Below are positions 3,841 to 39,936 of a stretch of DNA of 40,000 bases, one piece after another. This stretch comes from a virus. The notes under the pieces were generated by a model. It did no database searches. It saw only the letters and a program-made list of their open reading frames with translations, and was not told the DNA's origin. Position 1 is the first letter of the stretch; the number at the start of each line of letters is the position of its first letter. The position numbers were made by a program, and so were the translations under genes. The DNA is taken from IMG/VR virus record IMGVR_UViG_3300025687_000013. The stretch is one strand, 5' to 3'.

Positions 3841-4441
3841 CAACAGTCACCTCGGTTGATTGTTTAGGGGTGTCAGTCACCTCGGACGCAGCCATGTCAT
3901 CAGAGGCCAGAATGTCCTCTTTTGCCCACGATGGGACCTTGTCCCAGTTCTTAGGGTGCTGGTCGATGGAGTAGGCCCAGGGCTCGTTGGCACTGTCGGG
4001 GCACTGCAAACCCTTTGGCAGGGCTGACAGACCAACGATGCGGTCGCTGGTGGTTCCATTGGCATTCTCCTTGTGCTGGACATTTGCCAGGCAAGGGACG
4101 CCAAGGACGTTCTGGAGATCGAATTTCATCAGCTCGTCAGCGGTGAATGCTCGACCTCTCCATGCCTGGAGGTCCTGGCGAAGCTTCGCCTTCTGACTCA
4201 AGCTAGCGGTGTAGGTCACGCTACGCCCCAAGGGCTGTGGTCCGTCCTCCTCCCTGAACACTGCGGTGTGGTCTGGAAACTCAAACGTGAACATCACTCG
4301 CTTGCGTTTCTTGACCTCCCCTTTCCACTCACTATCTGCGGTGCCCAGATCAATGATACTGATGCACCGTGCTACATGGTTGCCCTCTGGAACCAGAGTG
4401 CGTTTCTTGTTGGTTTCGGTTGTTCCTACTGTTAGTCCCAT
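3824..4441 (-). CDS. single-stranded DNA-binding / annealing-type protein candidate (gp2.5 / DUF669-like) with acidic C-terminal tail
   Basis: The C-terminus ...STEVTVDEVPF resembles the acidic DDIPF-type tails of SSBs. The N-terminus has a LVPEGNHVARCISIIDLG pattern. The likely start is ATG 4441 after AAAGGTAACAAA; the ORF-track start at 4489 is a GTG. Confidence 0.55.
   Translation of the reverse strand: MGLTVGTTETNKKRTLVPEGNHVARCISIIDLGTADSEWKGEVKKRKRVMFTFEFPDHTAVFREEDGPQPLGRSVTYTASLSQKAKLRQDLQAWRGRAFTADELMKFDLQNVLGVPCLANVQHKENANGTTSDRIVGLSALPKGLQCPDSANEPWAYSIDQHPKNWDKVPSWAKEDILASDDMAASEVTDTPKQSTEVTVDEVPF
3869..3881 (-). promoter_or_regulatory. 13-mer motif copy (GGTGACTGACACC on minus strand), exact
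   Basis: The plus strand reads GGTGTCAGTCACC. The site lies 28 nt upstream of the exonuclease ATG (3840), inside the 3' end of the SSB-like ORF. Confidence 0.6.
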
Positions 4442-4526
4442 TTTGTTACCTTTCTGTTTTGGTGTTGTTGTTTTCTGAGTGTGGGTCACTCGGTTTCTCG
4501 GTCACCTCGACCGAAAAAGTCACTTG

Positions 4527-4539
4527 GGTGTCAGTCACC
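4527..4539 (-). promoter_or_regulatory. 13-mer motif copy (minus-strand sense), exact
   Basis: The plus strand reads GGTGTCAGTCACC. The site is intergenic, immediately downstream of the RlpA-like gene stop (4540) and upstream of the SSB-like gene. Confidence 0.6.
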
Positions 4540-4941
4540 TCAGTTAAGAATTGAGTAGCTAACGTTGATCAAACCCGCCTCCTTCTCGGCAAGTTCCTCG
4601 AAGGCTGCCCTGGAGAGGTCCAGCTCTCTGCCCTCAATAAAGGGCCCTCTGTCGTTTACTCGAACGATGACCTTGTTGGGCCCTAGCTTGACTAGAAGCC
4701 TAGTTCCAAAGGGCAACGTCTTGTGTGCAGCCGTGTATTCATCGGGCGAGAATGTCTCCCCGTTTGCAGTCAACCTGCCCCGGTATTTTTCTCCATACCA
4801 TGAGGCCACACATTTCTTGGCTGGTGCTGCTGGTTGCAGGACATAGATGTCCTTACTGATTTTGATGACCGGCTTGGTCTCTGATTGTTTGCAGCCGGTA
4901 ATGGCTGCGATGATGAGCATTGTTGTGATTAGATGTTTCAT
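4540..4941 (-). CDS. RlpA-like lipoprotein (DPBB-domain lytic transglycosylase family)
   Basis: Signal peptide plus lipobox MKHLITTMLIIAAITGC. This is followed by ASWYGEKYRGRLTANGETFSPDEYTAAHKTLPFGTRLLV...VRVNDRGPFIEGRELDLSRAAF, the characteristic RlpA/DPBB pattern. Confidence 0.8.
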   Translation of the reverse strand: MKHLITTMLIIAAITGCKQSETKPVIKISKDIYVLQPAAPAKKCVASWYGEKYRGRLTANGETFSPDEYTAAHKTLPFGTRLLVKLGPNKVIVRVNDRGPFIEGRELDLSRAAFEELAEKEAGLINVSYSILN

Positions 4942-4945
4942 GCGG

Positions 4946-5314
4946 TTATTTCTTGATCTGGCGTTGTTGCAACAACTCCTCCAATTGCTTCAGATCACAG
5001 CACTGAAGGAGAGTGAGCAGGTCATCTGCTCTTAGCATTGTCACCCAGGGCCTGTTGTTGGACTTCCAGGTGACCACAGGTAGTTCGTAGGGCTTTGCCT
5101 CCCCTACAACCTGGGCGAGCCAATCTCGCACCAGGCATCTCTCAGCGTTCTTGACTTCCCACCTGACCGGCAGGGCACTGCAAGTCACATCAGGTGACTC
5201 ACAGCCTGTCTGGCTCTGGTGAAAGCCTGTCCTGGTTGATGCGTAGCCGAACTCGGCCAACTTCCGCACCCAGGCTCTCTCTCCCCTGGCTCCCTTTTGC
5301 TTGCTGTTGGTCAT
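4946..5314 (-). CDS. Holliday-junction-resolvase-like PD-(D/E)xK nuclease candidate
   Basis: KGARGERAWVRKLAEFGY...SPDVTC...WEVKN gives the E...D...EVK arrangement typical of Hjc-like / archaeal-type resolvase relatives found in phages. Confidence 0.5.
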   Translation of the reverse strand: MTNSKQKGARGERAWVRKLAEFGYASTRTGFHQSQTGCESPDVTCSALPVRWEVKNAERCLVRDWLAQVVGEAKPYELPVVTWKSNNRPWVTMLRADDLLTLLQCCDLKQLEELLQQRQIKK

Positions 5315-5553
5315 ACGACTTTGCAGCCATGCTCCTCTAGAACAGAGGGCTTGCTTCTGGTGATGCAGCAGTAGCCTGCCTTCTCGGCAACGTAGTTGGT
5401 CAGCATCGACTTCTCATTCATTCGTTGAGCGTCGAGCTGGCACCACACTAGGTGGCTTACGTGGCCGTATTGGGACGGCATCATTGCTGTTTTTGAATAC
5501 CAGTGGGTTACCTGTTTAGGTATCGGTTTCGGGGCTATAGGTGATAGACTCAT
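5311..5553 (-). CDS. hypothetical protein, first gene of the leftward operon
   Basis: 80-aa ORF with an ATGA overlap to the next gene. It lies immediately left of the divergent intergenic region. Confidence 0.45.
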   Translation of the reverse strand: MSLSPIAPKPIPKQVTHWYSKTAMMPSQYGHVSHLVWCQLDAQRMNEKSMLTNYVAEKAGYCCITRSKPSVLEEHGCKVV

Positions 5554-5595
5554 GTTTCCTTTCTATGGGTTTGATTACTGTTGGTTTTGGCTAGG

Positions 5596-5608
5596 GGTGA
5601 CTGACACC
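5596..5608 (+). promoter_or_regulatory. 13-mer motif copy (plus-strand sense), exact
   Basis: GGTGACTGACACC on the plus strand, in the 5554-5674 divergent intergenic region. It lies 66 nt upstream of the plus-strand ORF at 5675. Confidence 0.6.
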
Positions 5609-5647
5609 CGGTAGCTCAAAATGTTAATAACTTTCTGTGGCGTTAAG

Positions 5648-5660
5648 GGTGTCAGTCAGT
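5648..5660 (-). promoter_or_regulatory. 13-mer motif variant (11/13, minus-strand sense)
   Basis: The plus strand reads GGTGTCAGTCAgt. It is inverted relative to the 5596 copy, 39 nt away, in the same intergenic region. Confidence 0.45.
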
Positions 5661-5674
5661 AGAGTTAACTGCTT

Positions 5675-5878
5675 ATGGCTAACTCACGACACCCGGACAA
5701 ACGATGTATCTCTTGCTGGGTTGACAAGGACCTGTTCCTCGGCTGGCAGAAAGAGTGCGCTCACGTAGATCAAACTATGACTGAGCGAGTGACAGTCCTT
5801 CTGACTCAAGACTTCCAAGAACTAACTCGGTCAAGAGTTGCGAAGGCGAAACGTCGAGGTGCTGGCAAAGGGCGGTGA
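5675..5878 (+). CDS. small ribbon-helix-helix-like regulator candidate (possible repressor)
   Basis: 67 aa. KRCISCWVDKDLFLGWQKECAHVDQTMTERVTVLL fits a beta-strand/helix/turn/helix RHH pattern, with a basic tail. It is the first plus-strand ORF after the switch region. No clear SD. Its 3' end overlaps the convergent ORF 5775..5957. Confidence 0.35.
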   Translation: MANSRHPDKRCISCWVDKDLFLGWQKECAHVDQTMTERVTVLLTQDFQELTRSRVAKAKRRGAGKGR

Positions 5879-5957
5879 CGCCCTCGGCTACATCACTCGG
5901 CACGTTGAAAACGATAGGCTCTAACTTTTCCATCTGATTACGATTCAACTTTAACAC
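5775..5957 (-). CDS. small ribbon-helix-helix (CopG/Arc-like) protein candidate (regulator or excisionase-type)
   Basis: PIVFNVPSDVAEGVTALCQHLDVSPSQLLTELVLGSL is a textbook RHH pattern. The start is GTG 5957 or ATG 5933. It is divergent from int, with a palindrome between the two genes. Confidence 0.4.
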   Translation of the reverse strand: MLKLNRNQMEKLEPIVFNVPSDVAEGVTALCQHLDVSPSQLLTELVLGSLESEGLSLAQS

Positions 5958-5960
5958 ACA

Positions 5961-5983
5961 GGTAGGACAAATACTGTCCTACC
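5961..5983. promoter_or_regulatory. perfect 9-bp inverted repeat (GGTAGGACA-aatac-TGTCCTACC), candidate operator between the RHH gene and int
   Basis: Read directly: 5961-5969 is the reverse complement of 5975-5983. The element lies 4 nt from the GTG of the minus-strand RHH ORF and 22 nt upstream of the int start. Confidence 0.4.
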
Positions 5984-6004
5984 ACCCACATCCAGGAGGA
6001 ACAA

Positions 6005-6958
6005 TTGACCACAATGGCATTGTGGGGGTCAGGGGTTCGACTCCCCTCGGCTCCACCAAATTTCCCATCGGAGGAACCAACCCTTCAACTGTCCACTCAG
6101 GACGCCGACATCATTCGCGAGGTCTGGTCTAACGGCGTAAGCCTTGTCCAGGTCTGGAATGATTGGCGACGGTTGTATCTTGCCTCACCCCAAGGAGTCA
6201 ATACTTGTGTTGAATTATTTTTAACACACCTCCATGACACAGGTAGGTCCCCTCAATACTGCAAAGAGTTTGGCTGGGTCCTGCGTAAGCTTGATCTGTT
6301 CATGGACACTGAGCGCCCCCTCTGTCAGGTCACCACAAAAAGTTGGTGGCGTTCTCTCGATGCAATGAGGGCTGGAAACACTGCTAGAAGGAAGGTTGGA
6401 GTGTTCCTGAACTGGTGCCTTGCCCAGGGCTACATCAAGGAACCAATCAACATTCCAGGCAAGCCAAGCTACCCCAAGGGCGACGTTGACGTCCTGACCA
6501 ACGACGAGGTTGCCTCGCTAATCAAAACCTGTCCCTCAGACTTACTAGGTCACCTCTGGCTCTGTTTGTGCATGGGTTTGAGAGTCGCTGAAGCATCCAG
6601 GGTTGAGCATCTGAAAGTAACAGAGACTCACCTAGTGGTCGGTGCCCAGGCTGCCAAGACAAAGACCAGACGCATCCTGGACATCCCTGAACACCATGGA
6701 CACTACACCCAGTTGATCAGGCCTCAGACCAACATCAGGAAACGAATGGAAGCTCTCAGGCTGAAGGCTGGTCTGACTCGATGGCCCAGGAACTGTATGA
6801 GGCACACCGCAGCCTCACATTGGTTGAACAGGCTACGGTCAGCCGAGGCTGCCGCACTTCACCTGGGCAACTCACCTGTCATGTTGCATCGGCATTACAA
6901 AGCTCTAGTGACCCGGCAGGAGTCTACTGAATTCTTTGACCTCTGGGTTGGGTTCTAG
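6005..6958 (+). CDS. int: tyrosine recombinase / phage integrase
   Basis: Catalytic pattern: R in MGLRVAEASR, H-x-x-R in CMRHTAASHW, and H/Y in VMLHRHYKAL. TTG 6005 lies 5 nt after AGGAGG; the alternative start is ATG 6014. Confidence 0.85.
   Translation: MTTMALWGSGVRLPSAPPNFPSEEPTLQLSTQDADIIREVWSNGVSLVQVWNDWRRLYLASPQGVNTCVELFLTHLHDTGRSPQYCKEFGWVLRKLDLFMDTERPLCQVTTKSWWRSLDAMRAGNTARRKVGVFLNWCLAQGYIKEPINIPGKPSYPKGDVDVLTNDEVASLIKTCPSDLLGHLWLCLCMGLRVAEASRVEHLKVTETHLVVGAQAAKTKTRRILDIPEHHGHYTQLIRPQTNIRKRMEALRLKAGLTRWPRNCMRHTAASHWLNRLRSAEAAALHLGNSPVMLHRHYKALVTRQESTEFFDLWVGF
6009..6058 (+). other. attP core candidate: 3' 50 nt of a tRNA-Ala(GGC)-like gene (anticodon arm, variable loop, T-arm, acceptor 3' strand, ACCA)
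   Basis: Anticodon stem CCACA(6009-13)/TGTGG(6021-25) with loop ATGGCAT (anticodon GGC). Variable loop GGGTC. T-arm AGGGG-TTCGACT-CCCCT. Acceptor CGGCTCC plus A plus CCA. U70 is compatible with the G3:U70 Ala identity pair. No matching 5' acceptor strand or D-arm lies upstream, so this is a fragment and not a gene. Confidence 0.75.
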
Positions 6959-6998
6959 ATGGTTCCATTTAAAAACCTGGAGATAGCCCCCCTGGACA

Positions 6999-7011
6999 GG
7001 TGTCAGTCACC
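6999..7011 (-). promoter_or_regulatory. 13-mer motif copy (minus-strand sense), exact
   Basis: The plus strand reads GGTGTCAGTCACC. It is intergenic between int (ends 6958) and ORF 7028, and is oriented against the plus-strand genes around it. Confidence 0.6.
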
Positions 7012-7027
7012 AGGGTAGGCTGTTGCG

Positions 7028-7840
7028 GTGCAACGCTACAAATTAAAGCTCGGCCTGGAGAATGATAGCATCAAACTCCAAGGCATCGGCTCTCAAATCA
7101 GGGCTGCCGCGACATTGATGCAGAAAGCATCTGTTCGAGGAGACGAGGTGGTTCCAGAGATGGTAGTAAATGGCCAGGACGTTTTCCCACTCATCTTTAA
7201 CAGGAAATCAAAGCCCACTTCAGACATGGAGGTTTGTCCATGTGAAAGCCTGAGTTGGTGTCCACTCGATGAGCCAGCACACGCAGGCGCAGCCATGAAT
7301 CATTTCTCATGGTCAGATCAATGGAAGAAAAGGTGCGAAGAAAAGCTCCAAAGCGTAGGCAACCCTACCGTTGTATTATCACTGAGAGAGACTGACAAGA
7401 TAGATGGCGGGGAGATGGTGTTACCCACAGTTGTTTACCAGAATCTAATTAACACATCAGAGGAACCAGTCCTAGTCCTGGCTGATTCTAACTGGTCCCT
7501 GCCAGACCTGGAAACATTACCAACTTGCAGGACCCTAGAGCGAACGATGAGCCACAGCCTGTTCCCCCTTCATCGAACAAGGCTCCTTGATCGAGGCATT
7601 ACTTCTAAAGCAGAGCTGTTAAATCACACCCTGGAAATGTTTGAAGACATTTACATTTTGGGCACAGCAAAAACAGTATTCTACCCGGTGTGGCACGGAG
7701 TGTTATCGGCTGGAATTTTGCTCGCTAAAAACCGTCCAAACCTGGTTTGCCTCCAAGACTTCCTAACCCCAAGGGAGAAGCAGTTTGTGAACTACTACTG
7801 CAAACGGGAAACCCACTTCTGGAACTTCTTAGACAAATGA
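7028..7840 (+). CDS. hypothetical protein, first gene of the cargo cassette
   Basis: 270-aa ORF with a GTG start. Its stop overlaps the ATG of the radical-SAM gene (ATGA), suggesting translational coupling. No family recognised by eye. Confidence 0.55.
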   Translation: MQRYKLKLGLENDSIKLQGIGSQIRAAATLMQKASVRGDEVVPEMVVNGQDVFPLIFNRKSKPTSDMEVCPCESLSWCPLDEPAHAGAAMNHFSWSDQWKKRCEEKLQSVGNPTVVLSLRETDKIDGGEMVLPTVVYQNLINTSEEPVLVLADSNWSLPDLETLPTCRTLERTMSHSLFPLHRTRLLDRGITSKAELLNHTLEMFEDIYILGTAKTVFYPVWHGVLSAGILLAKNRPNLVCLQDFLTPREKQFVNYYCKRETHFWNFLDK

Positions 7841-9030
7841 TAATTCACTCACAACACCTCGACGTCTCTTATGAGGCACAACCTAACTGCAAGACCATTC
7901 AGATAACGGTTGGTGAATGGTCAGAGAAATATGCTGCCCTTCACGGTGGTATCAGAATGATTTGTGCGACCCTGCCGCATGACCTGGTTCACAGGGACCT
8001 CTCGGTAAAAGTCGAATGCGACGGCAACATGGAGCTTGGGCAGGTCGTGAGCAGGAGTGCTAGGCATGAACCTCTAGGCCTGCATGAACACACAGAAGCT
8101 CTGAATGAGTGCGAGCAGAGAGCCATAGCAATGCCTGTCAGCCTTCAGTGGTTTGCTACTTGGAGGTGTAATTACAAGTGCGCCTACTGCTGGCAGGAGA
8201 CAGTGAGAGACAGTTACAGGAAGGACAAGCCAGCCAAAAGGTCGCCTGTAGAATGGGCTAGGGCCCTGCTATCATTACAACCTAACGAGGTCTACATCAG
8301 TGGCGGCGAGCCTACGACTCTCCCCAACTTCACCAAGATCGTTCAGGCAGTTGGCCTGGTTGTCCCCGTCAACATCACAAGCAATCTCGGTAACTCGTTT
8401 GACATCGATGCCTGGGAGAAGGAAGTCAGCCCAGATGCGATTGACTGTATTACTTTCAGTTTTCACCCAACTCAACAGTCGTTCGATGAATACTCAAGGA
8501 AGCTACGTCATTTTGTCAGTGTTTACGGTGGGAGCAAGACCGGGTCGGAGTTAGTCATGCACCCTGGGCAAACACAATACGAACAGCCATTGAGAGACTT
8601 AGACTCTGAGCTTGGGCTAAGGACGCTGAACATCGATGTGTTCCATCAACAGCCAACCATCTACCCAGCCGCACCAGGACAATGCGTGAACAAGAGGCCT
8701 GCAAGCAACCCTGCGTTGGCAAGTAAACCAAGACATGCCCCAGGCGACACAAGCCCACATTACTGTGCTGCTGGAATGACTCGCCTGAACATTGACCCGG
8801 TTGGTGATGCATACACCTGCATGTCAGCCATTGATCGAAGCAAGATGTTTGGAAAGCACACCCTCCCTCACTACTCACCAGTGGGTAATATATTCGACGA
8901 AGGGTTCAGAATGCAGCAGAAGCCTGTGCTGTGCTGGGAGACTTTTCGGTGTTCTGGCTGCGATGTCGCTAAAGTTAAAGGCTCATGGGTTGAACACCCA
9001 CACCCTTACGAACTTCCTTTGCCACAGTAA
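7837..9030 (+). CDS. radical SAM enzyme with SPASM/twitch-like C-terminal Cys-rich domain and a ~100-aa N-terminal extension
   Basis: WRCNYKCAYCWQ is a CxxxCxxC cluster motif. VYISGGEPT is the GGE SAM-binding motif. The C-terminus has YCAAGMTRLNIDPVGDAYTC and LCWETFRCSGCD. ATG 7837 is in frame with the longer ORF-track ORF (7747) and forms ATGA with the upstream stop. Confidence 0.85.
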   Translation: MIIHSQHLDVSYEAQPNCKTIQITVGEWSEKYAALHGGIRMICATLPHDLVHRDLSVKVECDGNMELGQVVSRSARHEPLGLHEHTEALNECEQRAIAMPVSLQWFATWRCNYKCAYCWQETVRDSYRKDKPAKRSPVEWARALLSLQPNEVYISGGEPTTLPNFTKIVQAVGLVVPVNITSNLGNSFDIDAWEKEVSPDAIDCITFSFHPTQQSFDEYSRKLRHFVSVYGGSKTGSELVMHPGQTQYEQPLRDLDSELGLRTLNIDVFHQQPTIYPAAPGQCVNKRPASNPALASKPRHAPGDTSPHYCAAGMTRLNIDPVGDAYTCMSAIDRSKMFGKHTLPHYSPVGNIFDEGFRMQQKPVLCWETFRCSGCDVAKVKGSWVEHPHPYELPLPQ

Positions 9031-9036
9031 AATCTC

Positions 9037-9603
9037 ATGAGACACAAAGTATTATTGGTGGGTAGTGGCCCATACATCAGGGAATGGTGGGCTTTGCACA
9101 AAGACAAAATTGGAGAAGTGAGCTGCATGAACACTGCCATTGAGGTGGTGGGTGCCAGACATCACAGATGGTATCTGAGCAGTGACTTCATGCACAACAG
9201 GCAGTGGACCTTCCAGGGTATGCGGGAGAGAATTGGAGAACACATTCTGGGCTTGAGAATCGTCGCCAGCTTCCTGTCTACCCCTCATTGGTATAACTGC
9301 CCCTATGACGGAACCATGTTGCTCAACTCCATCTACGACATACTCAACAGGGCCACAGTTGGAGAGACTCCGGTGGAGCTGAACCTGATTGGGTGTGACC
9401 TCGACTACAGTCAGCCCAAGACACATTTCTACGAGGGCGGGACTCCTGACCCCAAGAGAATACCAGACGATGTGCTGCTAGGGCACATGCACAAGGCGAT
9501 GAAAGACTTCTCGCCCATGCACAAGATCGTCAACCTGGGGCCCCAGCCATCGTTCCTTCCGTTTGAACCAGGAGACCCTGAACTGTCATGGAAACATACC
9601 TAG
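9037..9603 (+). CDS. Rossmann-like protein, possibly DUF115/MptE-like (Maf / sialyltransferase-like) glycosyl- or nucleotidyl-sugar transferase
   Basis: N-terminal KVLLVGSGPYI glycine motif and a later NLIGCDLDY resemble DUF115-family proteins. The assignment is weak. The CDS itself is well supported by its packing in the operon. Confidence 0.45.
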   Translation: MRHKVLLVGSGPYIREWWALHKDKIGEVSCMNTAIEVVGARHHRWYLSSDFMHNRQWTFQGMRERIGEHILGLRIVASFLSTPHWYNCPYDGTMLLNSIYDILNRATVGETPVELNLIGCDLDYSQPKTHFYEGGTPDPKRIPDDVLLGHMHKAMKDFSPMHKIVNLGPQPSFLPFEPGDPELSWKHT

Positions 9604-10232
9604 TCACATCTGGAACAGTATCTCACGCTCCTATTCGGACCGGTTTCTTTGAGCCATCACTGGCTGAATGTGAGCCAGTTGAGTGGGTTCATTTTGAGAA
9701 AAGGCTACCTCATGACAACACAGGAAACTTCATGCACATAGACTGGAAACATGCTGTGCTGTGGAAAATTAGGAATGCTCTCAAGTTGTGCAGCATGGTC
9801 GATGAAGGCTCGCTGGTTGTCATATCAGACCTCGACATAATCTACAGGCCTGGAGCTTTCAACAGGCTATCGGAAGAGGTTTCAGACGGTGTTTTTGCGA
9901 TGTGCGAGAACGAGCAGATGGAGATAAATGCTGGCTTGATTGCTTCCAAGAATTGCCAGGCATTCAGGTGGTTGCTGACAGAAGTTCTTGAATACATGGT
10001 TCAGCACAGTTGTCACGATCAGAACGCATTGAGGGCTGTCTCCCAGGGTCGGGTAAAGGTCTTGCCAGTTGAGTATAACAACACAAAGACCGAGAACTTG
10101 ATCGAAAGGGGAAAGGCTTTGTGCTTTCATGCAATCTGCACCATGGCAGACGAAAAACAGGGAAGTGTCTCTAAGAAATTAGCCATGCTCCAACGGTGGC
10201 TTGACAGGTGTCAGTCACCTATGGCAACTTAG
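9588..10232 (+). CDS. GT-A-type nucleotide-diphospho-sugar transferase-like protein
   Basis: LVVISDLDIIYRPG is DxD-like, followed by EINAGLIASKNCQAFRWL and HDQNALRAV. The order and spacing match the nucleotide-diphospho-sugar transferase family. Confidence 0.6.
   Translation: METYLVTSGTVSHAPIRTGFFEPSLAECEPVEWVHFEKRLPHDNTGNFMHIDWKHAVLWKIRNALKLCSMVDEGSLVVISDLDIIYRPGAFNRLSEEVSDGVFAMCENEQMEINAGLIASKNCQAFRWLLTEVLEYMVQHSCHDQNALRAVSQGRVKVLPVEYNNTKTENLIERGKALCFHAICTMADEKQGSVSKKLAMLQRWLDRCQSPMAT
10207..10219 (-). promoter_or_regulatory. 13-mer motif copy (minus-strand sense), exact
   Basis: The plus strand reads ttgacaGGTGTCAGTCACC, inside the last 26 nt of the cassette's final ORF. It is oriented against cassette transcription. 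Confidence 0.6.
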
Positions 10233-10331
10233 TTGGGCCTGGCCCCAGAGACACGTTGTCCCTGGGACTACCGGGTAATTTAGTTGTGGTTAGGGAACTA
10301 TAAGCGGTTACCTGCTAGACATACGGAGAAG

Positions 10332-10373
10332 CCCTCTCACCAGCGGTTGGATACTCAGGTGGGAGGGTTTTTT
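10332..10373 (+). terminator. Rho-independent terminator at the convergence point of the plus-strand cassette and the minus-strand late operon
   Basis: CCCTCTCACC (10332-41) pairs with GGTGGGAGGG (10358-67). This gives a 10-bp stem with one G-U pair and a 16-nt loop, followed by TTTTTT (10368-73). It lies 7 nt from the stop of the 2306-aa minus-strand ORF, so it may act on both strands. Confidence 0.7.
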
Positions 10374-10379: not shown

Positions 10380-13300
10380 TTAATTGTTTCTCAACTTGTC
10401 CAGGTGGTCCTGGGCTTTCTCTACTGAGCTGAAGACAGGGCCCACTCTCCTGCCCTTGTCAGAGTAGACTCTGACCCCTGCTCTGCTAGATGTCTGAACT
10501 GCCCTGAAGCCGTAACCGTCTAGGTAGATGGCTCCACCTCGGTTGTTCAGTTGTCGGGCTGGGGAGAACTTTGTCCCAGGGAAAGTTTGCCTGGCCTTCT
10601 GTCGCAGGTCCTCTGGTATTCTCAGATTATCAGCGTCGTCTGGTGACAGAGATTGAAGTTCTTCTAAGACTGCGTTGAACCTATTTCGTAGGGGTGCATT
10701 GTCCCTGTCCATACCACCATCATCGCGTCTCTTATTCCTGCTAGTTTGTCGTCTGTCAGAGCTTCTGGCCCTATCTCCTCTGCCAGCTTTTCGGTTTGCA
10801 GCAGAACGCTCGTTCGCTCTTGCTTCGTCAAGCTGGACCAGGGAGGAGTTTGCCATGTCTGAACGGTCCGATTGTAGATATCTTTGGCGTATTTTTCCTC
10901 GATCATCTGGTGTTCCTTGGTAAGTGAGCTGAACAATGTCTGGCATTTCGCCACCTCTGTTCCAACCCTGAGACTCCCATACCCTCATCATATCAGCAAG
11001 CTGATTGTTTGGTGTCCCCTGCTCTTCTGGGTTAAATTTGACCCGGTTTGTTTCCTTGAAGCCAAACGTCTCGATGGCGTCTACCCTAGCGCCTCTAGGG
11101 TTGTTAGCTGTAGGTATTGCGAATGTCTTAATCTCTGTTGCTCCTTCCTCAATGGCTTTGAGCATGATGGCAGGAAGATCAGCACCCGATGTGCCCGGCT
11201 GGTTATTAATAGGGTTGAGAATCTCAAGCCCAGCGCCATCACCTGTAGCCCTGAGAGCGAAGTAAATGTTGGAACTGCGATCTTGGCCCAGTTGAAACAC
11301 CCGCATCTCCCCAGACTTAACCATGTCCTTGACTTGCTTTTTGGGAAGTGGCTCAAGCATGGGTGATGCAAAGTTCTCTCCGATGGCTAGTGAGAAGTCT
11401 GCGCTTCCCTTTCCTGTCCTGGGCACCTCATACCAGTCACCAATTGCACCCTGAAGAACTGCCTTGGCTTGGGCTGGGTTCTTTACGTGTTCAAACTTGT
11501 CTACCCCAAACCTGCTGGCAACTTGCTCAGTGATTGAAGTGACAGGCCAGTCCCTGTCCAGGGTGTAGTAACTGTCTTTGCCTCGGCGCTTATAGTGGTC
11601 TGGGAACAGTTTCTCTGCTGAAATAGGTTTCTCCAGGACACCAACCAACTTGCCCCTCACTGCAAAGTCGTATGACCTGTGGCTTGGAATTCCATTCTCG
11701 CCTAGCTTGACGACGTCGCCTCTAGGGTCGAGCTTCAGCACCAGTAACGCCTGCCCATGAGGCTGCCCCCTAAACTCTGGCTGAATGGTTGCGTCTAGTA
11801 TTCGAGACACTCTAGGGAAGCCTGCCTCAACAAACTTGGCCTGATCAATTCTCTCAGCAAACATAGCCCTCTTTTCAAAGGGCAGGCTGTTTAGGTAAGC
11901 GAGCAACTTGTCTGGGTTCTCCAGCCCTGGGAAGTCGGGGAAAACCAGGGTCTTGCCTTTGCCTTTCCCTGCTGACTTCTCCCAATTTGAAAACTCACTA
12001 TTCAGGCTCTTCAGGTTCTCCTCAGATATTCTGCCTCCCTTGATGTATGCCACAACGGTTTGGCTGATAGCGTCAGAGACATCAGTGTTTGATTTGTGAG
12101 ACTGAGGAGTCATGGAGACCACAACACCGTAGACCCCGTCTTGAGCCATCTTTGACTTGATCTTGCTGACACCAGGGCCCTTGTTGGCCCAGGCGAGGCC
12201 TGCTTTCTGAATGCCCTTGAGAAGTGGGAAGTATGGTCCACCCTTTAATTCGATAGGGACAAGGATGTCAGAGCTGTCGATGCCACTGTAAACGTCTCCT
12301 GCCGCCGTGAGGTCTGCCTTGATTGGGAATAGCTTCATTCCAACCAGGTCTTTGCCTGTAAGCTTCTTGACCTTCTTAGAGTCCACCAGTTTGCTGTAAG
12401 TCTCAGACACAGTCCTGGCTGGTGAATACCTGGGAACACCCTGTGCAGAGACCTTCGAGTTAACGTCCTCGTTGAGTGCCACGTAATTGGCCTGTAAGCC
12501 GTCTCTGAGGGTCTTTTGCTCAACCTGTAACGGTCTACCCTTGGAGTCCTTCGTCTGCTTCCAGAGCTTTAATCTAGGAAGCATTTCATCGTAGAACCCT
12601 CTCATGCCATTACCACCCAGACGGAGGTCGTCTCCTTCCAGGAGGGCAGACCTCATTCCGTTTTGCTCAAGGTCACCCTCCATACTGTCGAGGGCCCTCT
12701 TAGTGAGTTCCTTTCCGATGTAATCAGGAAGCTTGTCCTTGGTGATGCCAGTTTCAACTGTCTTGAAGACGTCCTCATCTGGGACCCTGGCCATCAGCTC
12801 GTAAGTGCCGTCGTCGTATTCAATAACATCTAACCCAGAGACTTTGTCACCGAGGTTATACCTGGCGTTCTGGGTTTCACCGGTTGTCCAAGCGATAGCA
12901 TCGTAGCCCTCATCAGCAGCAAGCTTGAGCATTCGCTTCATCGAGAACTCAGGCCAGGACTTCTTGAAGGGGGCGTTGGGGACTCCTTTTAGTTCATCAA
13001 ACTTTATGCGCCTCAACATGTTTCGCCTTTGCCTCATTTCTGTAGTCATTGGCTTGTATTGGTTTTGCATGAAAAACCGCAAGTCTTCGTGAGCTTTAGC
13101 TTTCATTGCATCAGGGGCATTGTCGTGAAACATTTGCTCCTCAATCTTCTGTAATCGCAGTTTTAAAACCTGAAGATCGTTTACCTGCTCAAGAACATCA
13201 AGTTCCCTTGCTTCTTCTTGAGTCAGCCTCCTAGTTCCATACCCCTTGCCTCTTCCTGCTTGATGCCAATCAGACTGAATTTCCTCCAGGAACAGAATCT

Positions 13301-29435: not shown

Positions 29436-29725
29436 GCGTCGTATGCCGTAATAGCTCCAGTGCTGACCACAATCTGGGTCGCTGAACAGCAACGCCAGGT
29501 GCTACCTGCCTGGAGAGATATGTTGGTCAGTGTGCCAGTCAGATTAGGGCTGGTGACACTGGACAAGATGGTTGAGGTGTGAGCGAAGATGTAACTGAAG
29601 CTTCCGTTCAGTGTCCCTGCCCCGTTCTGGTAGGTCCCAGTGCTGGAGCCAAAGTGACCATCGTCACCCACTCTGACAGTGCGATATTTGTCGTTGTTAT
29701 CTACTCCGGTAATTAGTGCTGGCAT
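29432..29725 (-). CDS. hypothetical small structural-region protein
   Basis: 97-aa ORF. Its ATG lies 10 nt downstream of a 13-mer motif copy. Confidence 0.45.
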   Translation of the reverse strand: MPALITGVDNNDKYRTVRVGDDGHFGSSTGTYQNGAGTLNGSFSYIFAHTSTILSSVTSPNLTGTLTNISLQAGSTWRCCSATQIVVSTGAITAYDA

Positions 29726-29735: not shown

Positions 29736-29748
29736 GGTGTCAGTCACC
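29736..29748 (-). promoter_or_regulatory. 13-mer motif copy (minus-strand sense), exact
   Basis: The plus strand reads GGTGTCAGTCACC. It is intergenic, 10 nt upstream of the start at 29725. Confidence 0.6.
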
Positions 29749-30815: not shown

Positions 30816-30908
30816 GGGAGAGAGGGTTTCCCCTCTCCCCCAGGAGGTGTGTGTTGCGTGACCAGGTGACCCACACCTGGAATTGTTCTAGAGTTGTTGC
30901 AACAACTC
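30816..30908 (-). terminator. cluster of three hairpins immediately downstream of the capsid gene (terminator / attenuator / RNA-stabiliser candidate)
   Basis: An 18-bp perfect palindrome GAGTTGTTGCAACAACTC (30891-30908) abuts the capsid stop. A second hairpin is CCAGGTG-accca-CACCTGG (30862-30880). A third, imperfect G/C-rich hairpin is GGGAGAGAGGGTTTCCCCTCTCCCC (30816-30840). No clean U-tract follows any of them. Confidence 0.45.
30865..30877 (+). promoter_or_regulatory. 13-mer motif variant (GGTGACCCACACC, 11/13) embedded in a 7-bp-arm hairpin
   Basis: It differs from GGTGACTGACACC only at the two central positions. Flanking bases extend it to the inverted repeat CCAGGTG/CACCTGG. Confidence 0.35.
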
Positions 30909-31948: not shown

Positions 31949-32965
31949 TTAGCCTTTCAAGAATGCCGCAGTGATGAAGTCTCTGAGACCGTCCTTGGAA
32001 CCGGTTTGCATCACACGTTTCTTGGCTCTGGCAATTGAGTCTTCGCTTGAAGAGACACTCTTCTGAGCTGAAGGCCTTCCTGGTTGGGGCGTTGGGTCAG
32101 GTGTTCTTGTCGGTGCTTTTGCCTGATTGGCCTGCTCTTGCTCCAAGTAAAAGCCCACTAGGGCTCGCGCAAGATAGAGGTCCACATCGGGCAGGTGCTT
32201 AATTGCAGGGTTCGCCTGCTTTACCTGATCAACCCAAGCCCTTGCAGGGTTTTTGGGGTCCTTCAACCATGGGTATTTCTCGGCTGCGAACTCAAATGAT
32301 CGGTGTTCTGCGAGTATCTGTTTCCGTCGCTTAGGTATGTCGCTCTCCCTGGAGAACTCAGCGTTTAGACTGAGGTCTTCTAGCCAGGCTTCGACATCGT
32401 CGGGCAGGTCTTGCCCAGTGCGATTGCGAATCTCGTTTTCTACCGAATCTGGGTCTCGCCTGTAGCGACTGAGGGCACGTTTCGCCCACCTTTCCGCTTC
32501 CATGGCTTCGTCCTCAAGCCTCTCCAGTGCCTCAATTGTTGAGGCGTCCTGAATAAGGTCTGAAATGCCAGATTGTGACTTTTCCTCTGGTTGTCGCGAT
32601 TGTTTCTGTAGCTCAAACTGTTTCTCACGCAGCTCTTCGATCTCTCGTTGGAGTTCGTTCTTCTGCCATGTCAGTTTGTCCACTCGCTTACGCCAGGAGT
32701 AGTCACTGTTCGTGTTGCTCTCTGGTTCCCCTTCGCCCTCGTCAGACTGCGGCGTTGAGTCTGCTTCAGGTTCAGGGACAGGAGGTGTTTCCGTTGTCTT
32801 TTCGGAGGCAGGTTCTGGAGCAGGGCCAAGGCTTCCCTTGATCGCTTCTCTGACTGCGTCCATTGCACCAGCATTAGGTAGGGCTTCCTCCGCAGCCTGG
32901 TGTGCTGCGGTCATCACTGTTTCTTCAGACATGCTGTTTGGAACGGGTCGCAAGTAACCCTTCAC
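31949..32965 (-). CDS. scaffolding protein candidate
   Basis: 338 aa, acidic, E/Q/K-rich and coiled-coil-like (KLTWQKNELQREIEELREKQFELQKQ). It lies between the portal and the capsid gene. The start is uncertain: GTG 32965 or ATG 32932. Confidence 0.6.
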   Translation of the reverse strand: MKGYLRPVPNSMSEETVMTAAHQAAEEALPNAGAMDAVREAIKGSLGPAPEPASEKTTETPPVPEPEADSTPQSDEGEGEPESNTNSDYSWRKRVDKLTWQKNELQREIEELREKQFELQKQSRQPEEKSQSGISDLIQDASTIEALERLEDEAMEAERWAKRALSRYRRDPDSVENEIRNRTGQDLPDDVEAWLEDLSLNAEFSRESDIPKRRKQILAEHRSFEFAAEKYPWLKDPKNPARAWVDQVKQANPAIKHLPDVDLYLARALVGFYLEQEQANQAKAPTRTPDPTPQPGRPSAQKSVSSSEDSIARAKKRVMQTGSKDGLRDFITAAFLKG

Positions 32966-32993: not shown

Positions 32994-33006
32994 GGTGTCA
33001 GTCACC
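32994..33006 (-). promoter_or_regulatory. 13-mer motif copy (minus-strand sense), exact
   Basis: The plus strand reads GGTGTCAGTCACC. It is intergenic, 28 nt upstream of the scaffold ORF start. Confidence 0.6.
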
Positions 33007-33038
33007 CAAGGCGAAAAGTAGAAGTTTCAGTTTTCGCG

Positions 33039-33305
33039 TCAAGGGGTAGGGTCAGATTCTTTCTCTCCCAGGGCGTCCTGGAACAGGTTCTCAAAGCCGA
33101 AATACATGTCCTGAATCATTGCCAGGCGGCCTGCTTGATAGTGCCTCTGAGAGTCGTTCAGGTCTGTTGCAGCCACACTGAAGGCTTCGCCCTTCATGGC
33201 TTCGTTGAGAATGTAGAGCAAACCCTGCCTGACAGGGTGTTCTTCAGGCATTGTGAATGCCTGTAATAGTTCATCGGGGTAGCCCCCGAACCTGTAATCA
33301 TCCAT
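33039..33305 (-). CDS. hypothetical protein
   Basis: 88-aa ORF overlapping the portal gene end by 8 nt. Confidence 0.5.
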   Translation of the reverse strand: MDDYRFGGYPDELLQAFTMPEEHPVRQGLLYILNEAMKGEAFSVAATDLNDSQRHYQAGRLAMIQDMYFGFENLFQDALGEKESDPTP

Positions 33306-37335: not shown

Positions 37336-37337
37336 GG

Positions 37338-37690: not shown

Positions 37691-38191
37691 TCAGGGGTTC
37701 TTTTCTTCTGTTACCACCTCTGCATCAATGACTTCTTCATCCTTCCTGGCATTGGCAATGAGTTGTTTGAGTGCTAACGCATCAATGGTGGTTGATGTAT
37801 GAGCCACAATGGCGCTGGGTAAGCCCTGAACCTGCACCTCTTTGTCGGTCAAGATGCCGATGGCGACGGGTAACTTATCAGCCTTCACTTCATTGGCCTC
37901 TACTGCCTCTTTGAACTTGGTCAGGCACAGGTCCCTTGTCTGCCTAAGATTATTAATCAGAGCCTCTTGAGAGTGAGCAGGCAGGTTCTCCTTAGAGCTG
38001 ATACCCTGGACGGTCTGCTGACCAATACCGAATATCTTAGCTATGCTCTCATGCCCTACTCCCTCTCTTATTGCCCTCACGATACAGTCGTATCGTTTCG
38101 GGTCTTTAGCCTTGATCTGGGTGCCATCATAGTTCCTGAGACCCTGGTCAGGCATTCTCTGATTGAACTGGGTCAGGGAGCCTTTAGGCAT
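37691..38191 (-). CDS. HTH DNA-binding protein (small terminase subunit or late-gene regulator candidate)
   Basis: 166 aa. CIVRAIREGVGHESIAKIFGIGQQTVQGI is a helix-turn-helix. The C-terminus is acidic. It is the last gene before the non-coding gap that precedes the packaging module. Confidence 0.45.
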   Translation of the reverse strand: MPKGSLTQFNQRMPDQGLRNYDGTQIKAKDPKRYDCIVRAIREGVGHESIAKIFGIGQQTVQGISSKENLPAHSQEALINNLRQTRDLCLTKFKEAVEANEVKADKLPVAIGILTDKEVQVQGLPSAIVAHTSTTIDALALKQLIANARKDEEVIDAEVVTEEKNP

Positions 38192-38268
38192 GGTGGTAAA
38201 TAGAAAGACGGCTGGAGACTATCGTCTTCCAACCGCCCTCCCAATTATCTGTGTCTAGAGGTCGTCTG

Positions 38269-38454
38269 TCAAGGGTGACTGACACCTCCGAGTCTATATT
38301 TACGTCTGGACAATCGTTCACGGTCCCCTGTTTGTAGGGTTTTCTTTGGGGCTTGACAAGAGGGCTGCCTGTAGCCCCAACCACCACATGCTGGGCAGTG
38401 GGTTGGTTCAGGCTTCAGGACGTAGCCTCTGCCGTGACAGATTGGGCAGATCAT
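38269..38454 (-). CDS. small DnaJ-type zinc-finger protein
   Basis: MICPICHGRGYVLKPEPTHCPACGGWGY contains two CxxCxGxG repeats. ATGA overlap with the upstream gene. Confidence 0.55.
   Translation of the reverse strand: MICPICHGRGYVLKPEPTHCPACGGWGYRQPSCQAPKKTLQTGDRERLSRRKYRLGGVSHP
38274..38286 (+). promoter_or_regulatory. 13-mer motif copy (plus-strand sense), exact
   Basis: GGTGACTGACACC on the plus strand, at the extreme 3' end of the zinc-finger ORF. It is oriented against local transcription. Confidence 0.55.
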
Positions 38455-38792
38455 TGGTCAAACCCTATGATGGGCCCTGGGAAGATGCTCTTCAGAGCTG
38501 CCATACCACCGTAGTCTGCGTTGATACAGAGAAGCAGTAGTTCAGCCTGGTCCAGGACATAGGTTCGTTCACGTTCAAACCCTGGTATTATGTATGGAGC
38601 CCAAGTCTTGGGGTCATTCTCGTCTACTTTGACCACGCCTGACCAGGGGCCTGCTATCTGACTCAGGGCATACTTACCTCGGTCACCTACCGGGCTGTAG
38701 ATGGCCATCATCATGCGGTTGTTAGGCTCGTCATACCATTGAGCCGTGACTCCTGATTCATGCTTCAGGAGAACTGTTGGTTTCAGCATCAT
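38451..38792 (-). CDS. hypothetical protein
   Basis: The likely start is ATG 38792 (MMLKPTVLL...) after AAAGGAACTAATA. The ORF-track start at 38873 is probably too far upstream. Confidence 0.5.
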   Translation of the reverse strand: MMLKPTVLLKHESGVTAQWYDEPNNRMMMAIYSPVGDRGKYALSQIAGPWSGVVKVDENDPKTWAPYIIPGFERERTYVLDQAELLLLCINADYGGMAALKSIFPGPIIGFDQ

Positions 38793-38900
38793 TATTAGTT
38801 CCTTTCTGTTTAGGGTTGGGGTTGCGCCAGGTGTAGCTTGTGGGCATACCTCGCTTTCTGAAGAAACGGTCACAGGCCTTGTCTAGTTTCGTGAAGAAAC

Positions 38901-39437
38901 CTAGCTCAAAGTAGTAACCACAGCCTTCAAAGTCGGCTTTGGGTGTTGGTTCATCATCCATTGGACGTCTGTTAATTGATCTCTGGGGTATAGGTAGACA
39001 ATGCGACCCTGTATGGGCTCCATGTATTCGGGTTTCTCGACCTCTGATGTGGGCGCTATGCCCACGATGGTGAACGTGTGGTCCTGACACTCCACCAGGG
39101 CTAGAAAGTCCGTCTTATGGGCCTTCAGGTTCGCTATCAGGTTGCCTCCGATCACTGGGGTAGTCTTGATGTCAACTGTCCTGCCATCTGGCAGTGTCAC
39201 ATCAACTACGCATGGCCCTGAACTGTCCAGGTCAGGCCACAGGTTGAAGGCCTTAGCAAAGGCCAGTTCTCCTGCTACCCCATTGATGTCGGCTGTTTCT
39301 CTGGCACCTGGAGACTTGTCCAGGTGCCCCATCTGGTCATTGGTCCTGGTTGGGCCAGTGACTGCTATGCGCTCATGCGCTAAGTGCCTGGCTAGTGCCA
39401 GCTCTGATCGGCTCAGTGTTATGGTAATCATTGCCAC
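38901..39437 (-). CDS. PD-(D/E)xK (restriction-endonuclease-fold) nuclease-like protein
   Basis: GVAGELAFAKAFNLWPDLD...VVDVTLPDGRTVDIKTT...DFLALV follows the E...D...(D/E)xK order seen in many small phage nucleases. Confidence 0.5.
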   Translation of the reverse strand: MAMITITLSRSELALARHLAHERIAVTGPTRTNDQMGHLDKSPGARETADINGVAGELAFAKAFNLWPDLDSSGPCVVDVTLPDGRTVDIKTTPVIGGNLIANLKAHKTDFLALVECQDHTFTIVGIAPTSEVEKPEYMEPIQGRIVYLYPRDQLTDVQWMMNQHPKPTLKAVVTTLS

Positions 39438-39936
39438 GCATTCTCCCCAGGGTGTCAGTCACCTTGAGGAAAAGTGTTTCTAAGCCATCGCTATTGATGA
39501 TGGTGGCATCTGCCAGGACCTCATCAACTGAGGTCTCTGAGATGTGGTTGTCCACCACTCCATCCAGCTCTGGCCTAATAATTCTGATGACCTTTCCACC
39601 CTGGGAACGAACCCAGTCAGCCTCGAACGGGAACCGCAGATCATCGATGATGACCAGGTCTGCTGCGTGTTCCATGTCCCTCACACGGTCCTTGAGTTGA
39701 TCAATGAACACATACCTCCCAAACTTAGCCTTGAGAGACTCTCCCAGGGCTTGCATGACTGGCCTGAGAACCTCCTTGGGTGTCTCGTCCAACGGCCCGA
39801 ATATGCGCTCCACATGCTCCTTGATGGGTCTGGCAAAACTGTCCCTGTAGGCCAGCCCTGGGTGATTGTTCCTGATGAATGTAGCCGCAGTTGTTTTGCC
39901 GCTCCTCTTCTTCCCTACTAATGCAATTAGTTCCAT
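39373..39936 (-). CDS. deoxynucleoside monophosphate kinase (phage dNMP kinase family)
   Basis: MELIALVGKKRSGKTTAA is a P-loop. SFARPIKE and LVIIDDLRFPFEADWVRSQGGKVIRIIRP match the conserved D(V/L)RFxNE...GG...R blocks of phage dNMP kinases. Its first 59 nt are duplicated at window positions 1-59. Confidence 0.75.
   Translation of the reverse strand: MELIALVGKKRSGKTTAATFIRNNHPGLAYRDSFARPIKEHVERIFGPLDETPKEVLRPVMQALGESLKAKFGRYVFIDQLKDRVRDMEHAADLVIIDDLRFPFEADWVRSQGGKVIRIIRPELDGVVDNHISETSVDEVLADATIINSDGLETLFLKVTDTLGRMRGNDYHNTEPIRAGTSQALSA
39451..39463 (-). promoter_or_regulatory. 13-mer motif copy (minus-strand sense), exact
   Basis: The plus strand reads GGTGTCAGTCACC. It lies 13 nt upstream of the start at 39437, inside the 3' end of the dNMP kinase ORF. 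Confidence 0.6.

Follow-up and report, generated by a model that had tools for sequence, protein, structure and literature searches.

A dispersed 13-bp word with a genome-specific centre points to an operator- or stoperator-like silencing network in a temperate phage of probable Verrucomicrobiota hosts

The phage genome and its probable host

The window, by which we mean the whole 40,000-nt stretch of DNA analysed (IMG/VR virus record IMGVR_UViG_3300025687_000013), constitutes one complete genome, circular or terminally redundant, that measures 39,877 bp, since positions 1-123 are identical to 39878-40000. Our subject is a 13-bp word, GGTGACTGACACC, which is dispersed over this genome and which we read as the probable binding site of a phage-encoded regulator. 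The 123-nt overlap of the window ends holds no copy of the word, so that none was counted double. Recognisable genes include those for an SU10-type capsid protein (1e-44), a terminase, a DnaB helicase, a replication initiator and a dNMP kinase.

The phage is judged temperate because a tyrosine integrase open reading frame (ORF) is combined with an attP corresponding to the 3′ end of tRNA-Ala. The attP core spans tRNA-Ala(GGC) from the anticodon stem to the CCA (Table 1), and ARAGORN found no complete tRNA in the window. An exact 42-mer of the attP fragment occurs in 18 genomes, all of them Verrucomicrobiota (Pedosphaera or Limisphaerales). At the four host loci resolved by ARAGORN, the fragment is the 3′ part of the tRNA-Ala(GGC) gene; in two of the 18 genomes, a marine single-cell genome and a Red Sea metagenome-assembled genome, an integrase 48-52% identical to that of the window adjoins it. 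Because the fragment occurs only in Verrucomicrobiota genomes, the host probably belongs to the marine Verrucomicrobiota. To our knowledge, almost no phages or promoters of the phylum Verrucomicrobiota have been characterised. The first Verrucomicrobia viruses were obtained from single-cell genomes, with no prophage reported among them (PMC4611503).

Nine identical copies at gene boundaries

The word occurs nine times without a mismatch (named here by leftmost position and strand: 3869-, 4527-, 5596+, 6999-, 10207-, 29736-, 32994-, 38274+ and 39451-), that is, seven times on the minus strand and twice on the plus strand. There is no copy with one mismatch, and three have two (5193+, 5648- and 30865+). 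When hits with up to two mismatches were counted in 100 dinucleotide-preserving shuffles, the average was 1.9 and none of the shuffles reached 12, which confirms the claim of an earlier note on this DNA that the repetition is not due to chance. The two variants given there, at 5648 and 30865, are both present, but the list was incomplete, and 5193+ as well as a degenerate CCA-type copy, AGTGACCCACACT at 4478-, have to be added. The word at 30865 had been counted with the network but serves better as an internal control. It lies within a hairpin with a 7-bp stem directly after the capsid gene and remains CCA in relatives that use TG, TA or CC elsewhere; because it is part of a longer hairpin and does not co-vary, it is probably a terminator, an RNA hairpin or a relic rather than a network site.

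Six of the nine copies are wholly intergenic, compared with 4.2% of the genome that is non-coding in our working gene map (binomial P = 4e-7), and the other three lie within the last ~25-90 nt of ORFs. The placement at gene boundaries, the orientations and the distances to start codons, which range from 10 to 95 nt, are all as they had been described. All six copies in transcribed positions have the sense orientation, being found downstream of -10-like T-runs or between co-directional genes, and the three non-sense copies are those embedded in promoters. The base that follows the word divides the copies in the same way: it is a C in six of nine (not in seven, as had been stated) and a T at 6999, 10207 and 38274, precisely the three copies embedded in promoter hexamers.

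A good example of a site within an operon is 3869, which is separated by 28 nt from the start codon (ATG at 3840) of the PD-(D/E)XK exonuclease gene downstream. Because no promoter-like hexamers are found nearby, this is a within-operon, stoperator-like position. Site 4527 opens a 98-nt intergenic region before the gene for p221. Site 5596 lies within the 121-nt region between p80 (5311-5553, minus strand) and p67, and its inverted partner, the variant at 5648, has TTAACT 2 nt upstream. At the far end of the genome, site 39451 is 13-19 nt upstream of the start of ORF 38901-39437.

Table 1. Positions of the 13-mer copies, promoter-like sequences and selected genes in the window
Feature	Position	Strand	Remarks
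HNH gene	2076-2540		
Exact site	3869..3881	-	Sense; in 3′ end of ORF 3824-4441 (p221); read V-T-D-T
Exact site	4527..4539	-	Sense; directly adjoins TGA stop of DPBB_1 gene (4540-4941)
Exact site	5596..5608	+	Sense for p67; T-run GGTTTTGGCTAGG precedes
Two-mismatch variant ACTGACTGACACC	5648..5660	-	TGAC-TG-ACACC core kept; sense for p80
p67 (67 aa), ribbon-helix-helix-like candidate reader	5675..5878	+	Next to attP and integrase gene
p60 (52 aa from ATG 5933), Arc-like ribbon-helix-helix candidate reader	5775..5933	-	Convergent with p67
Tyrosine integrase ORF	6005..6958	+	phrog_1 match, 1e-9
attP core	6009-6058		Overlaps 5′ end of integrase ORF; equals 3′ 50 nt of tRNA-Ala(GGC)
Sigma-70-like promoter TGGACA-17-TAGGCT	6993..7021	+	Spacer filled by exact site 6999-7011 (motif on -)
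Promoter-like TTGACA-17-GCAACT	10201..10229	+	Spacer filled by exact site 10207-10219 (motif on -)
2306-aa ORF	10380-17300	-	End of virion module
Exact site	29736..29748	-	Sense; 10 nt upstream of ATG at 29725; TAATTTTTTT precedes
Hairpin CCAGGTG-ACCCA-CACCTGG	30862..30880	+	Directly after capsid gene; CCA-type word at 30865-30877 inside
Promoter-like TTGACG (33042-33037)-16-TACTTT (33020-33015)-8-exact site (33006-32994)	32994..33042	-	
166-aa protein, candidate reader or small terminase subunit	37691..38191	-	Helix-turn-helix at about residues 37-68
Near-consensus promoter TTGACA (38272-38267)-17-GATAAT (38249-38244)	38244..38286	-	For ORF 37691-38191
Exact site	39451..39463	-	Sense; C-terminal tail of dNMP-kinase ORF; CACTTTT precedes

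The centre of the word changes in concert among relatives

A near-identity DNA search (20 kb against 50,697 GenBank phages) gave no match, and the nearest isolate, Phage C75C1, is just ~30% identical in its capsid and terminase and holds no word comparable to the 13-mer. A search with the terminase through 185,579 prokaryote genomes found no related prophage. The relatives used here come from IMG/VR and other assemblies, with 20-40 kb reconstructed or fetched from about ten lineages, to which we refer by contig or lineage number.

In two close relatives, the contigs c25853 and c25818 (~91% nucleotide identity), the same word is found in the same places; this includes site 5596, and the variant at 5648 is identical in both. 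More distant genomes keep the site at orthologous positions with a centre specific to each genome. The motif of the earlier note is thus conserved in related phages in position, with a centre that has been changed per genome in concert. The core shared across relatives is TGAC-NN-ACACC. The centre is TG in the window, c25853 and c25818, TA (GGTGAC-TA-ACACC) in c37961 and L159, and CA/CC in c29448 and L078; L161 and L163 use TATGACTAACACC (TATGAC-TA-ACACC type), and L094, L080 and L083 use GGTGTAATACACC. Site 39451 carries the genome-specific centre in every lineage examined.

An instructive comparison is that with c37961, in which the 13-mers are 92% identical to those of the window and their ±20-nt flanks 45% identical. 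The sole difference within the 13-mers is a concerted G-to-A change. This extends to the copy at 3869, which lies in coding sequence: its orthologue is GGTGACTAACACC, read V-T-N-T, with D changed to N, and the DNA word is here maintained at the cost of an amino-acid change. The attP core is identical in the window, c37961 and L088, which therefore probably share the same or closely related hosts. Their words differ all the same, which argues for a phage-encoded rather than a host-encoded reader. Taken together, the concerted change across sites most likely reflects a phage-encoded reader that co-evolves with its sites, much as concerted co-evolution of repressor and stoperators has been described in Cluster A mycobacteriophages (PMC6550527).

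The sense bias seen in the window recurs in relatives, where eight of 10 sites in L161 and eight of nine in L163 are sense for the flanking or enclosing gene. In these two genomes, genes on either strand have a site ahead of them; for several small genes of the integrase-side cassette, it stands 2-30 nt before the ATG.

The lineage represented by L163, L164 and L088 has two word classes in one genome, with eight copies of TATGACTAACACC in the early and cargo half and GGTGACAAACACC in the late half; GGTGAC-AA-ACACC is the second class in the L088/L163 lineage. A further variant, GGTG[CT]CAAACACC, stands 4-5 nt before the p67-like start. The two classes may correspond to two related regulators or to graded affinities.

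Several copies lie in or next to promoter-like sequences

Four sites have a clear -35/-10 context (Table 1). The copies at 6999 and 10207 had been noted as flanking the plus-strand cargo cassette and pointing against it. They do flank the cassette but are not simply opposed to it, as they fill the spacers of plus-strand promoters. The promoter at 6993..7021 is upstream of the cargo cassette starting at 7028, and the same geometry is found at position 6778 of L161, where TTGCAA-at-[site]-ga-TTAAAT (17-bp spacer) stands before a radical-SAM gene. The promoter-like sequence at 10201..10229 is directed into a gap of 147 nt, closed by a strong terminator. Equivalents of site 10207 are adjacent to TTGAC in c37961 (22614), L159 (6877), L161 (4403) and L163 (3454); in c37961, L159 and L161, they read TTGAC-[site, forward]-N4-ATAAAG or equivalent.

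At the third location, the TTGACA-17-GATAAT promoter matches 11 of 12 consensus positions, and its -35 hexamer is abutted by the exact site 38274-38286, with the motif on the plus strand. All lineages have this promoter together with its conserved leader. In L094, L080 and L083, it is the 17-bp spacer of the equivalent promoter that contains the word of the lineage, and in c29448 the word at the position equivalent to 38274 is flipped in place. Orientation is free at the promoter-embedded positions, with words flipped in c29448 and forward, at the 10207 equivalent, in c37961, L159 and L161. The fourth case is site 32994, which is 28 nt upstream of the start of the scaffold gene at 32965 and would cover about +1 to +14 of the transcript. 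Here the TTGAC is kept in the four lineages with a comparable upstream region, and it is the site centre that changes.

A TTGACA-like hexamer (one mismatch at most) is adjacent to three of the nine sites, compared with 7% of random positions (P = 0.02), and this adjacency recurs independently in relatives. Many of the other sense sites are preceded at 1-10 nt by nAnTTT or a T-run, and A is favoured at position -1. Read by eye rather than statistically as -10 elements, these tracts would again put the word at about +1 to +14. Upstream of p97 (site 29736), a ~35-bp module made up of a T-run and the site is present in some lineages and absent in others.

Two of these regions hold additional features. 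Downstream of the TTGACA/site promoter at 10201-10229 lies a candidate small RNA of ~135 nt (10236-10373, plus strand), which ends in a strong terminator (CCCTCTCACC..GGTGGGAGGG plus T6) and has a predicted minimum free energy of -56.4 kcal/mol (z = -3.6 relative to mononucleotide shuffles). The segment 10201-10573 is 97.6% identical to c25853 though the adjacent cargo has been replaced. The leader between the GATAAT promoter and ORF 37691-38191 contains a conserved imperfect stem-loop, GGCGGTTGGAAGAC-gata-GTCTCCAGCCGTC (38207-38237, minus strand), whose 5′ half, GGGAGGGCGGTTGG, is kept even in relatives at 43-47% protein identity. This stem-loop may be related to pac or have a regulatory role.

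The immunity region and candidate readers

Sites 5596+ and 5648- form an inverted pair beside attP and the integrase gene. The pair had been noted before, and we find the centres of the two sites to be 52 bp apart and each site to be sense for the gene on its far side. This arrangement suggests face-to-face promoters between p80 and p67, each with a site near its start.

The gene to the right encodes p67, whose AlphaFold2 (AF2) model shows an extended segment and two helices (pLDDT 80.5). Its Foldseek matches are almost all ribbon-helix-helix (RHH) proteins (VapB, CdbA, CopG, Arc, KacA and AtaR), but with E > 1; a profile search of the PDB gave only a sub-threshold RHH match, SvtR 2KEL (E 0.7), and a single-sequence homologue search recovered p67 itself only. 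Convergent with p67 and overlapping its 3′ end by 104 nt is p60. The AF2 model of p60 (pLDDT 87.9) has the Arc repressor 1PAR as its best Foldseek match (probability 0.99, TM 0.75) and many further RHH matches, including CopG, and its PDB profile search found nothing. Both ORFs are open in the eight lineages with a readable immunity region, and homologues of both occur in 12 of 12 compared. Synonymous changes are in excess in the non-overlapping parts. Against c25853, p60 shows 13 synonymous and three non-synonymous changes, and codons 1-28 of p67 six synonymous and none non-synonymous (read off the sequences); over its whole ORF, p67 shows eight synonymous and 11 non-synonymous changes and is less constrained overall. 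Because synonymous changes exceed non-synonymous ones in all of p60 and in codons 1-28 of p67, the two ORFs are probably real genes.

The predicted beta-strand of p67 differs with the word, being CISCW in TG genomes, CLGAW in CA/CC genomes and CLAAW in all TA genomes. A telling case is the TA genome c37961 (CLAAW), whose backbone is close to the window while its p67 is just 33% identical. The strand of p60 also differs by group.

A third candidate is the 166-aa helix-turn-helix (HTH) protein encoded at 37691..38191, here HTH166, which the earlier note had put forward as a possible repressor. Its putative recognition helix carries a residue that likewise follows the word: Q (TG), S (GG-type TA), A or K/R (AT-type TA) and E/D (CC/CA). 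Its size and N-terminal HTH recall gp71, the repressor of mycobacteriophage L5. Its weak matches are to the phrog_57 small terminase (E 0.14) and to a CylR2-type (Cro/CI-type) HTH (E 0.65). Because of a conserved C-terminal tail, the position before the terminase genes and the phrog_57 match, HTH166 may instead be the small terminase subunit.

We regard p67 as the leading candidate for the reader of the word, at somewhat less than an even chance. The Arc-like p60 is a less likely choice, HTH166 comes after it, and a reader other than these three is less likely still.

Between p60 and attP lies a perfect 9-bp inverted repeat, GGTAGGACA-aatac-TGTCCTACC (5961-5983), in place of which c37961, L161 and L163 have the dispersed word, just upstream of the p60-like start. 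The repeat may be a second type of operator.

Sites coincide with the borders of exchanged cargo

Homology with c25853 stops at 7018 and restarts at 10201, and a 3.2-kb cargo cassette has thus been swapped between two sites. In the window, the cassette (7019-10200, plus strand) comprises ORFs of 270 aa, 427 aa (radical-SAM), 188 aa and 214 aa. In its place, c25853 carries an unrelated 1.9-kb segment; a DNA methylase and a Hydrolase_2 protein are among the different cargo that other lineages have at this position. Site 4527 is a breakpoint too: c25853, c37961 and L159 have an additional small ORF here, which begins directly behind the site.

A silencing network as the favoured explanation

We think it probable that the 13-mer is the DNA-binding site of a sequence-specific, phage-encoded regulator, most likely a prophage-silencing repressor. 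The best reading of the sites is an operator/stoperator-like silencing network that would be analogous, not homologous, to those of L5 gp71 or P1 C1. From the positions, orientations and concerted variation of the copies, we infer both that a protein binds them and that it represses. At promoter sites, where the word fills the spacer, abuts the -35 hexamer or lies at about +1 to +14, a bound protein would block initiation as at an operator. At sites between or inside co-directional genes, which are always sense, it would block or damp read-through, like the stoperators of L5. A 2-bp change of the centre at every site of a genome would then create a new specificity, that is, heteroimmunity among phages that share an attachment site.

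Several points weigh against this reading. There are just nine sites, compared with more than 20 in L5. Operators normally vary in affinity, and the lack of degenerate copies is unusual for them; a more stringent reader, perhaps a nuclease or a recombinase, could be the reason. In relatives, the sites are often sense and 2-30 nt before starts, which would also be in keeping with an RNA-level signal or with the promoter of an unrecognised polymerase. Our choice of -10 elements (nAnTTT T-runs, 1-10 nt from the site) is subjective, and the promoter consensus of Verrucomicrobiota is not established. The three candidate readers co-vary with the word about equally, in contrasts that are few and confounded by phylogeny. 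The promoters of all three candidate genes carry or adjoin a site, which is odd for a lysogenic repressor, although autoregulation is known in L5. Finally, the regulator may act in lysogeny or, instead, as a switch of the lytic cycle.

Among the rival explanations, a phage-specific promoter core would be read by an unrecognised phage RNA polymerase (e.g., a domain of the 2306-aa ORF) or a sigma-like factor, with transcription starting at or just after the site and the genome-specific centre acting like the specificity triplet of T7, T3 and SP6. Most sites are indeed sense and 2-95 nt before start codons, among them those of almost all small cargo genes in L161 and L163; as with T7-group promoters, the centre varies genome by genome; an AT- or T-rich tract often precedes the site; and the 2306-aa ORF has no recognisable domains. 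We nevertheless consider this improbable. No RNA polymerase or sigma domain was detected in any ORF scanned against Pfam and PHROGs, and the 2306-aa ORF has neither a DxDGD motif nor a PDB sequence match. Three sites of the window, like several of the relatives, are located within or upstream of sigma-70-like promoters, in either orientation, and copies are not all aligned with the genes that they would drive: 38274 opposes its gene, 6999 and 10207 are antisense in plus-strand spacers, and the site of c29448 is flipped in place. Conservation covers 11-13 bp only, with nothing conserved downstream of the site, and a temperate phage with structural genes behind TTGAC/-10 hexamers needs no polymerase of its own. 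The dispersed promoter that the earlier note offered as its alternative is thus disfavoured. So is its idea of a role at the RNA level, with GGTGA as a Shine-Dalgarno-like element, to which we give a slightly lower probability again. Here the word would act as a 5′-leader hairpin (GGUG-ACUGA-CACC) or as a single-stranded mRNA word, serving as a ribosome-binding site or translational operator, in RNA processing or stability, or as an ops-like loading or pause site for an elongation factor. The sense placement of six of nine sites in transcribed or leader positions would suit this, as would the ATG 0-5 nt after the word in several relatives, which places GGTGA at a Shine-Dalgarno-like spacing, and the stems extended at 32994, 39451 and 5596 (-12.6 to -13.7 kcal/mol). 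The hairpin alone, however, has just -3.0 kcal/mol, and the TATGACTAACACC type of relatives, which is without GGTGA, has 0.0. Complementarity of the flanks is inconsistent among copies, three sites fall outside a sense transcript (in a spacer or upstream of a -35 hexamer), and start-codon distances spread over 10 to 95 nt; a whole-window Rfam scan at gathering thresholds matched no family, and the domain scans detected no NusG/RfaH-like protein.

A target of DNA enzymology is more doubtful still: a strand-specific nick site of the T5/phiKMV type, an HNH endonuclease site, or a recombination boundary for the exchange of modules. All-or-none perfect conservation of 13 bp, a strand bias of seven to two, an HNH gene in the window and two copies that flank a 64-nt insert in L078 speak for it, as do mosaic breakpoints relative to c25853 exactly at three sites (7018, 10201 and an indel next to 4527). 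However, any shared island of sequence is expected to coincide with breakpoints in this way, and those at conserved words can be a by-product. Strand-specific nick sites occur in T5 or phiKMV-type phages, and the argument for a nick site is one by analogy with these examples. A role of this kind would also leave the association with -35/-10 hexamers, the inverted pair of the immunity region and the free orientation at promoters unexplained. The least probable of the explanations considered is that a global regulator or nucleoid protein of the Verrucomicrobiota host binds the sites, differences in the word then reflecting differences in host. The host is uncultured and its regulators are not known, and c29448, L078 and L089 have a slightly different tRNA-derived attP. 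Against this stand the different words of the window, c37961 and L088 behind an identical attP core, the two word classes within the one genome of L163, and the lack of a GGTGAC..ACACC word in 130 kb of Verrucomicrobiota DNA around tRNA genes, which is a small sample.

Other roles were tried and rejected. An activator site of the MotA-box type that replaces the -35 would have start codons as near as 2-10 nt, too close to accommodate a -10 element and the start of transcription. The word as its own -35 (CTGACA in the TG-type word) is plausible only at 5596, and other centres destroy CTGACA. A Shine-Dalgarno role fails on the variable start-codon distances and on relatives that do not keep GGTGA. 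The 2306-aa ORF as a hidden RNA polymerase was dropped for want of a Pfam, PHROG or PDB sequence match and of DxDGD.

Likeness to known dispersed operators

The closest parallel to a silencing network of this kind is found in Cluster A mycobacteriophages (L5 with gp71, Bxb1, TipsytheTRex). These temperate phages, too, have asymmetric sites of 13 bp scattered through the genome, both in promoters and in the short gaps between genes (PMC9283540, PMC6550527), and no phage RNA polymerase is involved. The more than 20 sites of L5 are operators where they lie in promoters and stoperators where they occupy short gaps between genes; a striking correlation links their orientation to the direction of transcription, and inverted sites lose their function (PMC9283540). 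The sense bias of the window and its relatives resembles this correlation. Related Cluster A phages have related but distinct words, which there track immunity and the repressor (PMC9283540, PMC6550527). A site upstream of the candidate regulator gene, suggesting autoregulation, is a further shared trait (PMC9283540, PMC6550527). The stoperator-like silencing proposed in the earlier note is therefore supported, by the temperate lifestyle, the concerted centres, the embedding in promoters and the sense orientation, in the sense of working like that system and not of belonging to it. Membership of the L5 family is not supported. Searches of the candidates against Pfam, PHROGs and PDB sequences gave no match to a gp71-type repressor, a monomer that combines an N-terminal HTH with a Stoperator domain at the C-terminus, although HTH166 might still prove a distant analogue at the level of its fold. 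The window has nine identical sites with pseudo-palindromic ends in place of more than 20 sites with a degenerate consensus, and its best candidates are RHH proteins of 52-67 aa instead of a two-domain monomer; RHH proteins bind as dimers or tetramers. The phages also differ in host, Verrucomicrobiota as opposed to Actinobacteria, and the present virion is podovirus-like with an SU10-type capsid.

In phage P1, similarly, the one repressor C1 serves many scattered transcription units through asymmetric operators, with 22 dispersed sites and a 17-bp consensus, ATTGCTCTAATAAATTT (PMC8546580). The word, its length, the protein and the lifestyle are different: P1 is a plasmid prophage, whereas the present phage integrates, and we saw no homologues of C1, Coi or Lxc. 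The Arc and Mnt proteins of P22 immI and CopG of pMV158 are small RHH repressors, as p67 and p60 may be, with short pseudo-symmetric operators that overlap promoters, and CopG recognises a 13-bp pseudo-symmetric element. In contrast, each of these has one local operator and not a genome-wide set, and in the window two RHH genes are convergent and overlapping, with a putative binding to the 13-mer. The repressor of the Streptomyces phage phiC31 acts at many conserved inverted repeats (CIRs) spread over a temperate genome, mostly at the starts of transcription units; these are 17-bp inverted repeats, and the repressor is unrelated.

We regard the regulatory network as real and well supported, with a clean natural series of specificity switches, and its mechanism as probably analogous to known systems. 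A more far-reaching possibility, which we hold only tentatively and consider unlikely on balance, is that stoperator-type silencing evolved independently in podovirus-like temperate phages of marine Verrucomicrobiota, with an RHH reader of ~50-67 aa, specificities set by 1-2-bp changes of the centre, and sites that double as joints for the exchange of cargo. If the favoured reading as a silencing network is right, it would be a second, non-homologous case of genome-wide, orientation-biased prophage silencing by one small repressor, here in an uncultured group of phages. Close relatives that differ only in the central dinucleotide of the site would offer a natural series in which a repressor and all its operators switch specificity together. 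The sites would mark the boundaries of transcription units, and likely promoters, in genomes beyond culture, and the words could be used as signatures by which metagenomic relatives are sorted into immunity groups. Sites that coincide with mosaic breakpoints suggest a route by which regulated cargo cassettes might pass from phage to phage.

Additional features of the genome

The 2306-aa ORF at the end of the virion module shows likeness to a contig from a Verrucomicrobia single-cell genome in its C-terminal ~80 aa only, and its homologue in L161 has DUF7178 and Phage_L5_gp82 matches. Four tandem 23-bp iterons (1734-1823), with GTGTCCCT-N6-GAGACAC-type inverted repeats, lie within the replication-initiator ORF 1585-2094 and probably constitute the replication origin, laid out as in lambda O. 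An 18-bp perfect palindrome, GAGTTGTTGCAACAACTC, occurs twice in the window, at 4960-4978 in the 3′ end of ORF 4946-5314 and at 30890-30908 just after the capsid stop. It is also present in L039 and L040 and may be a terminator or a second protein-binding site.

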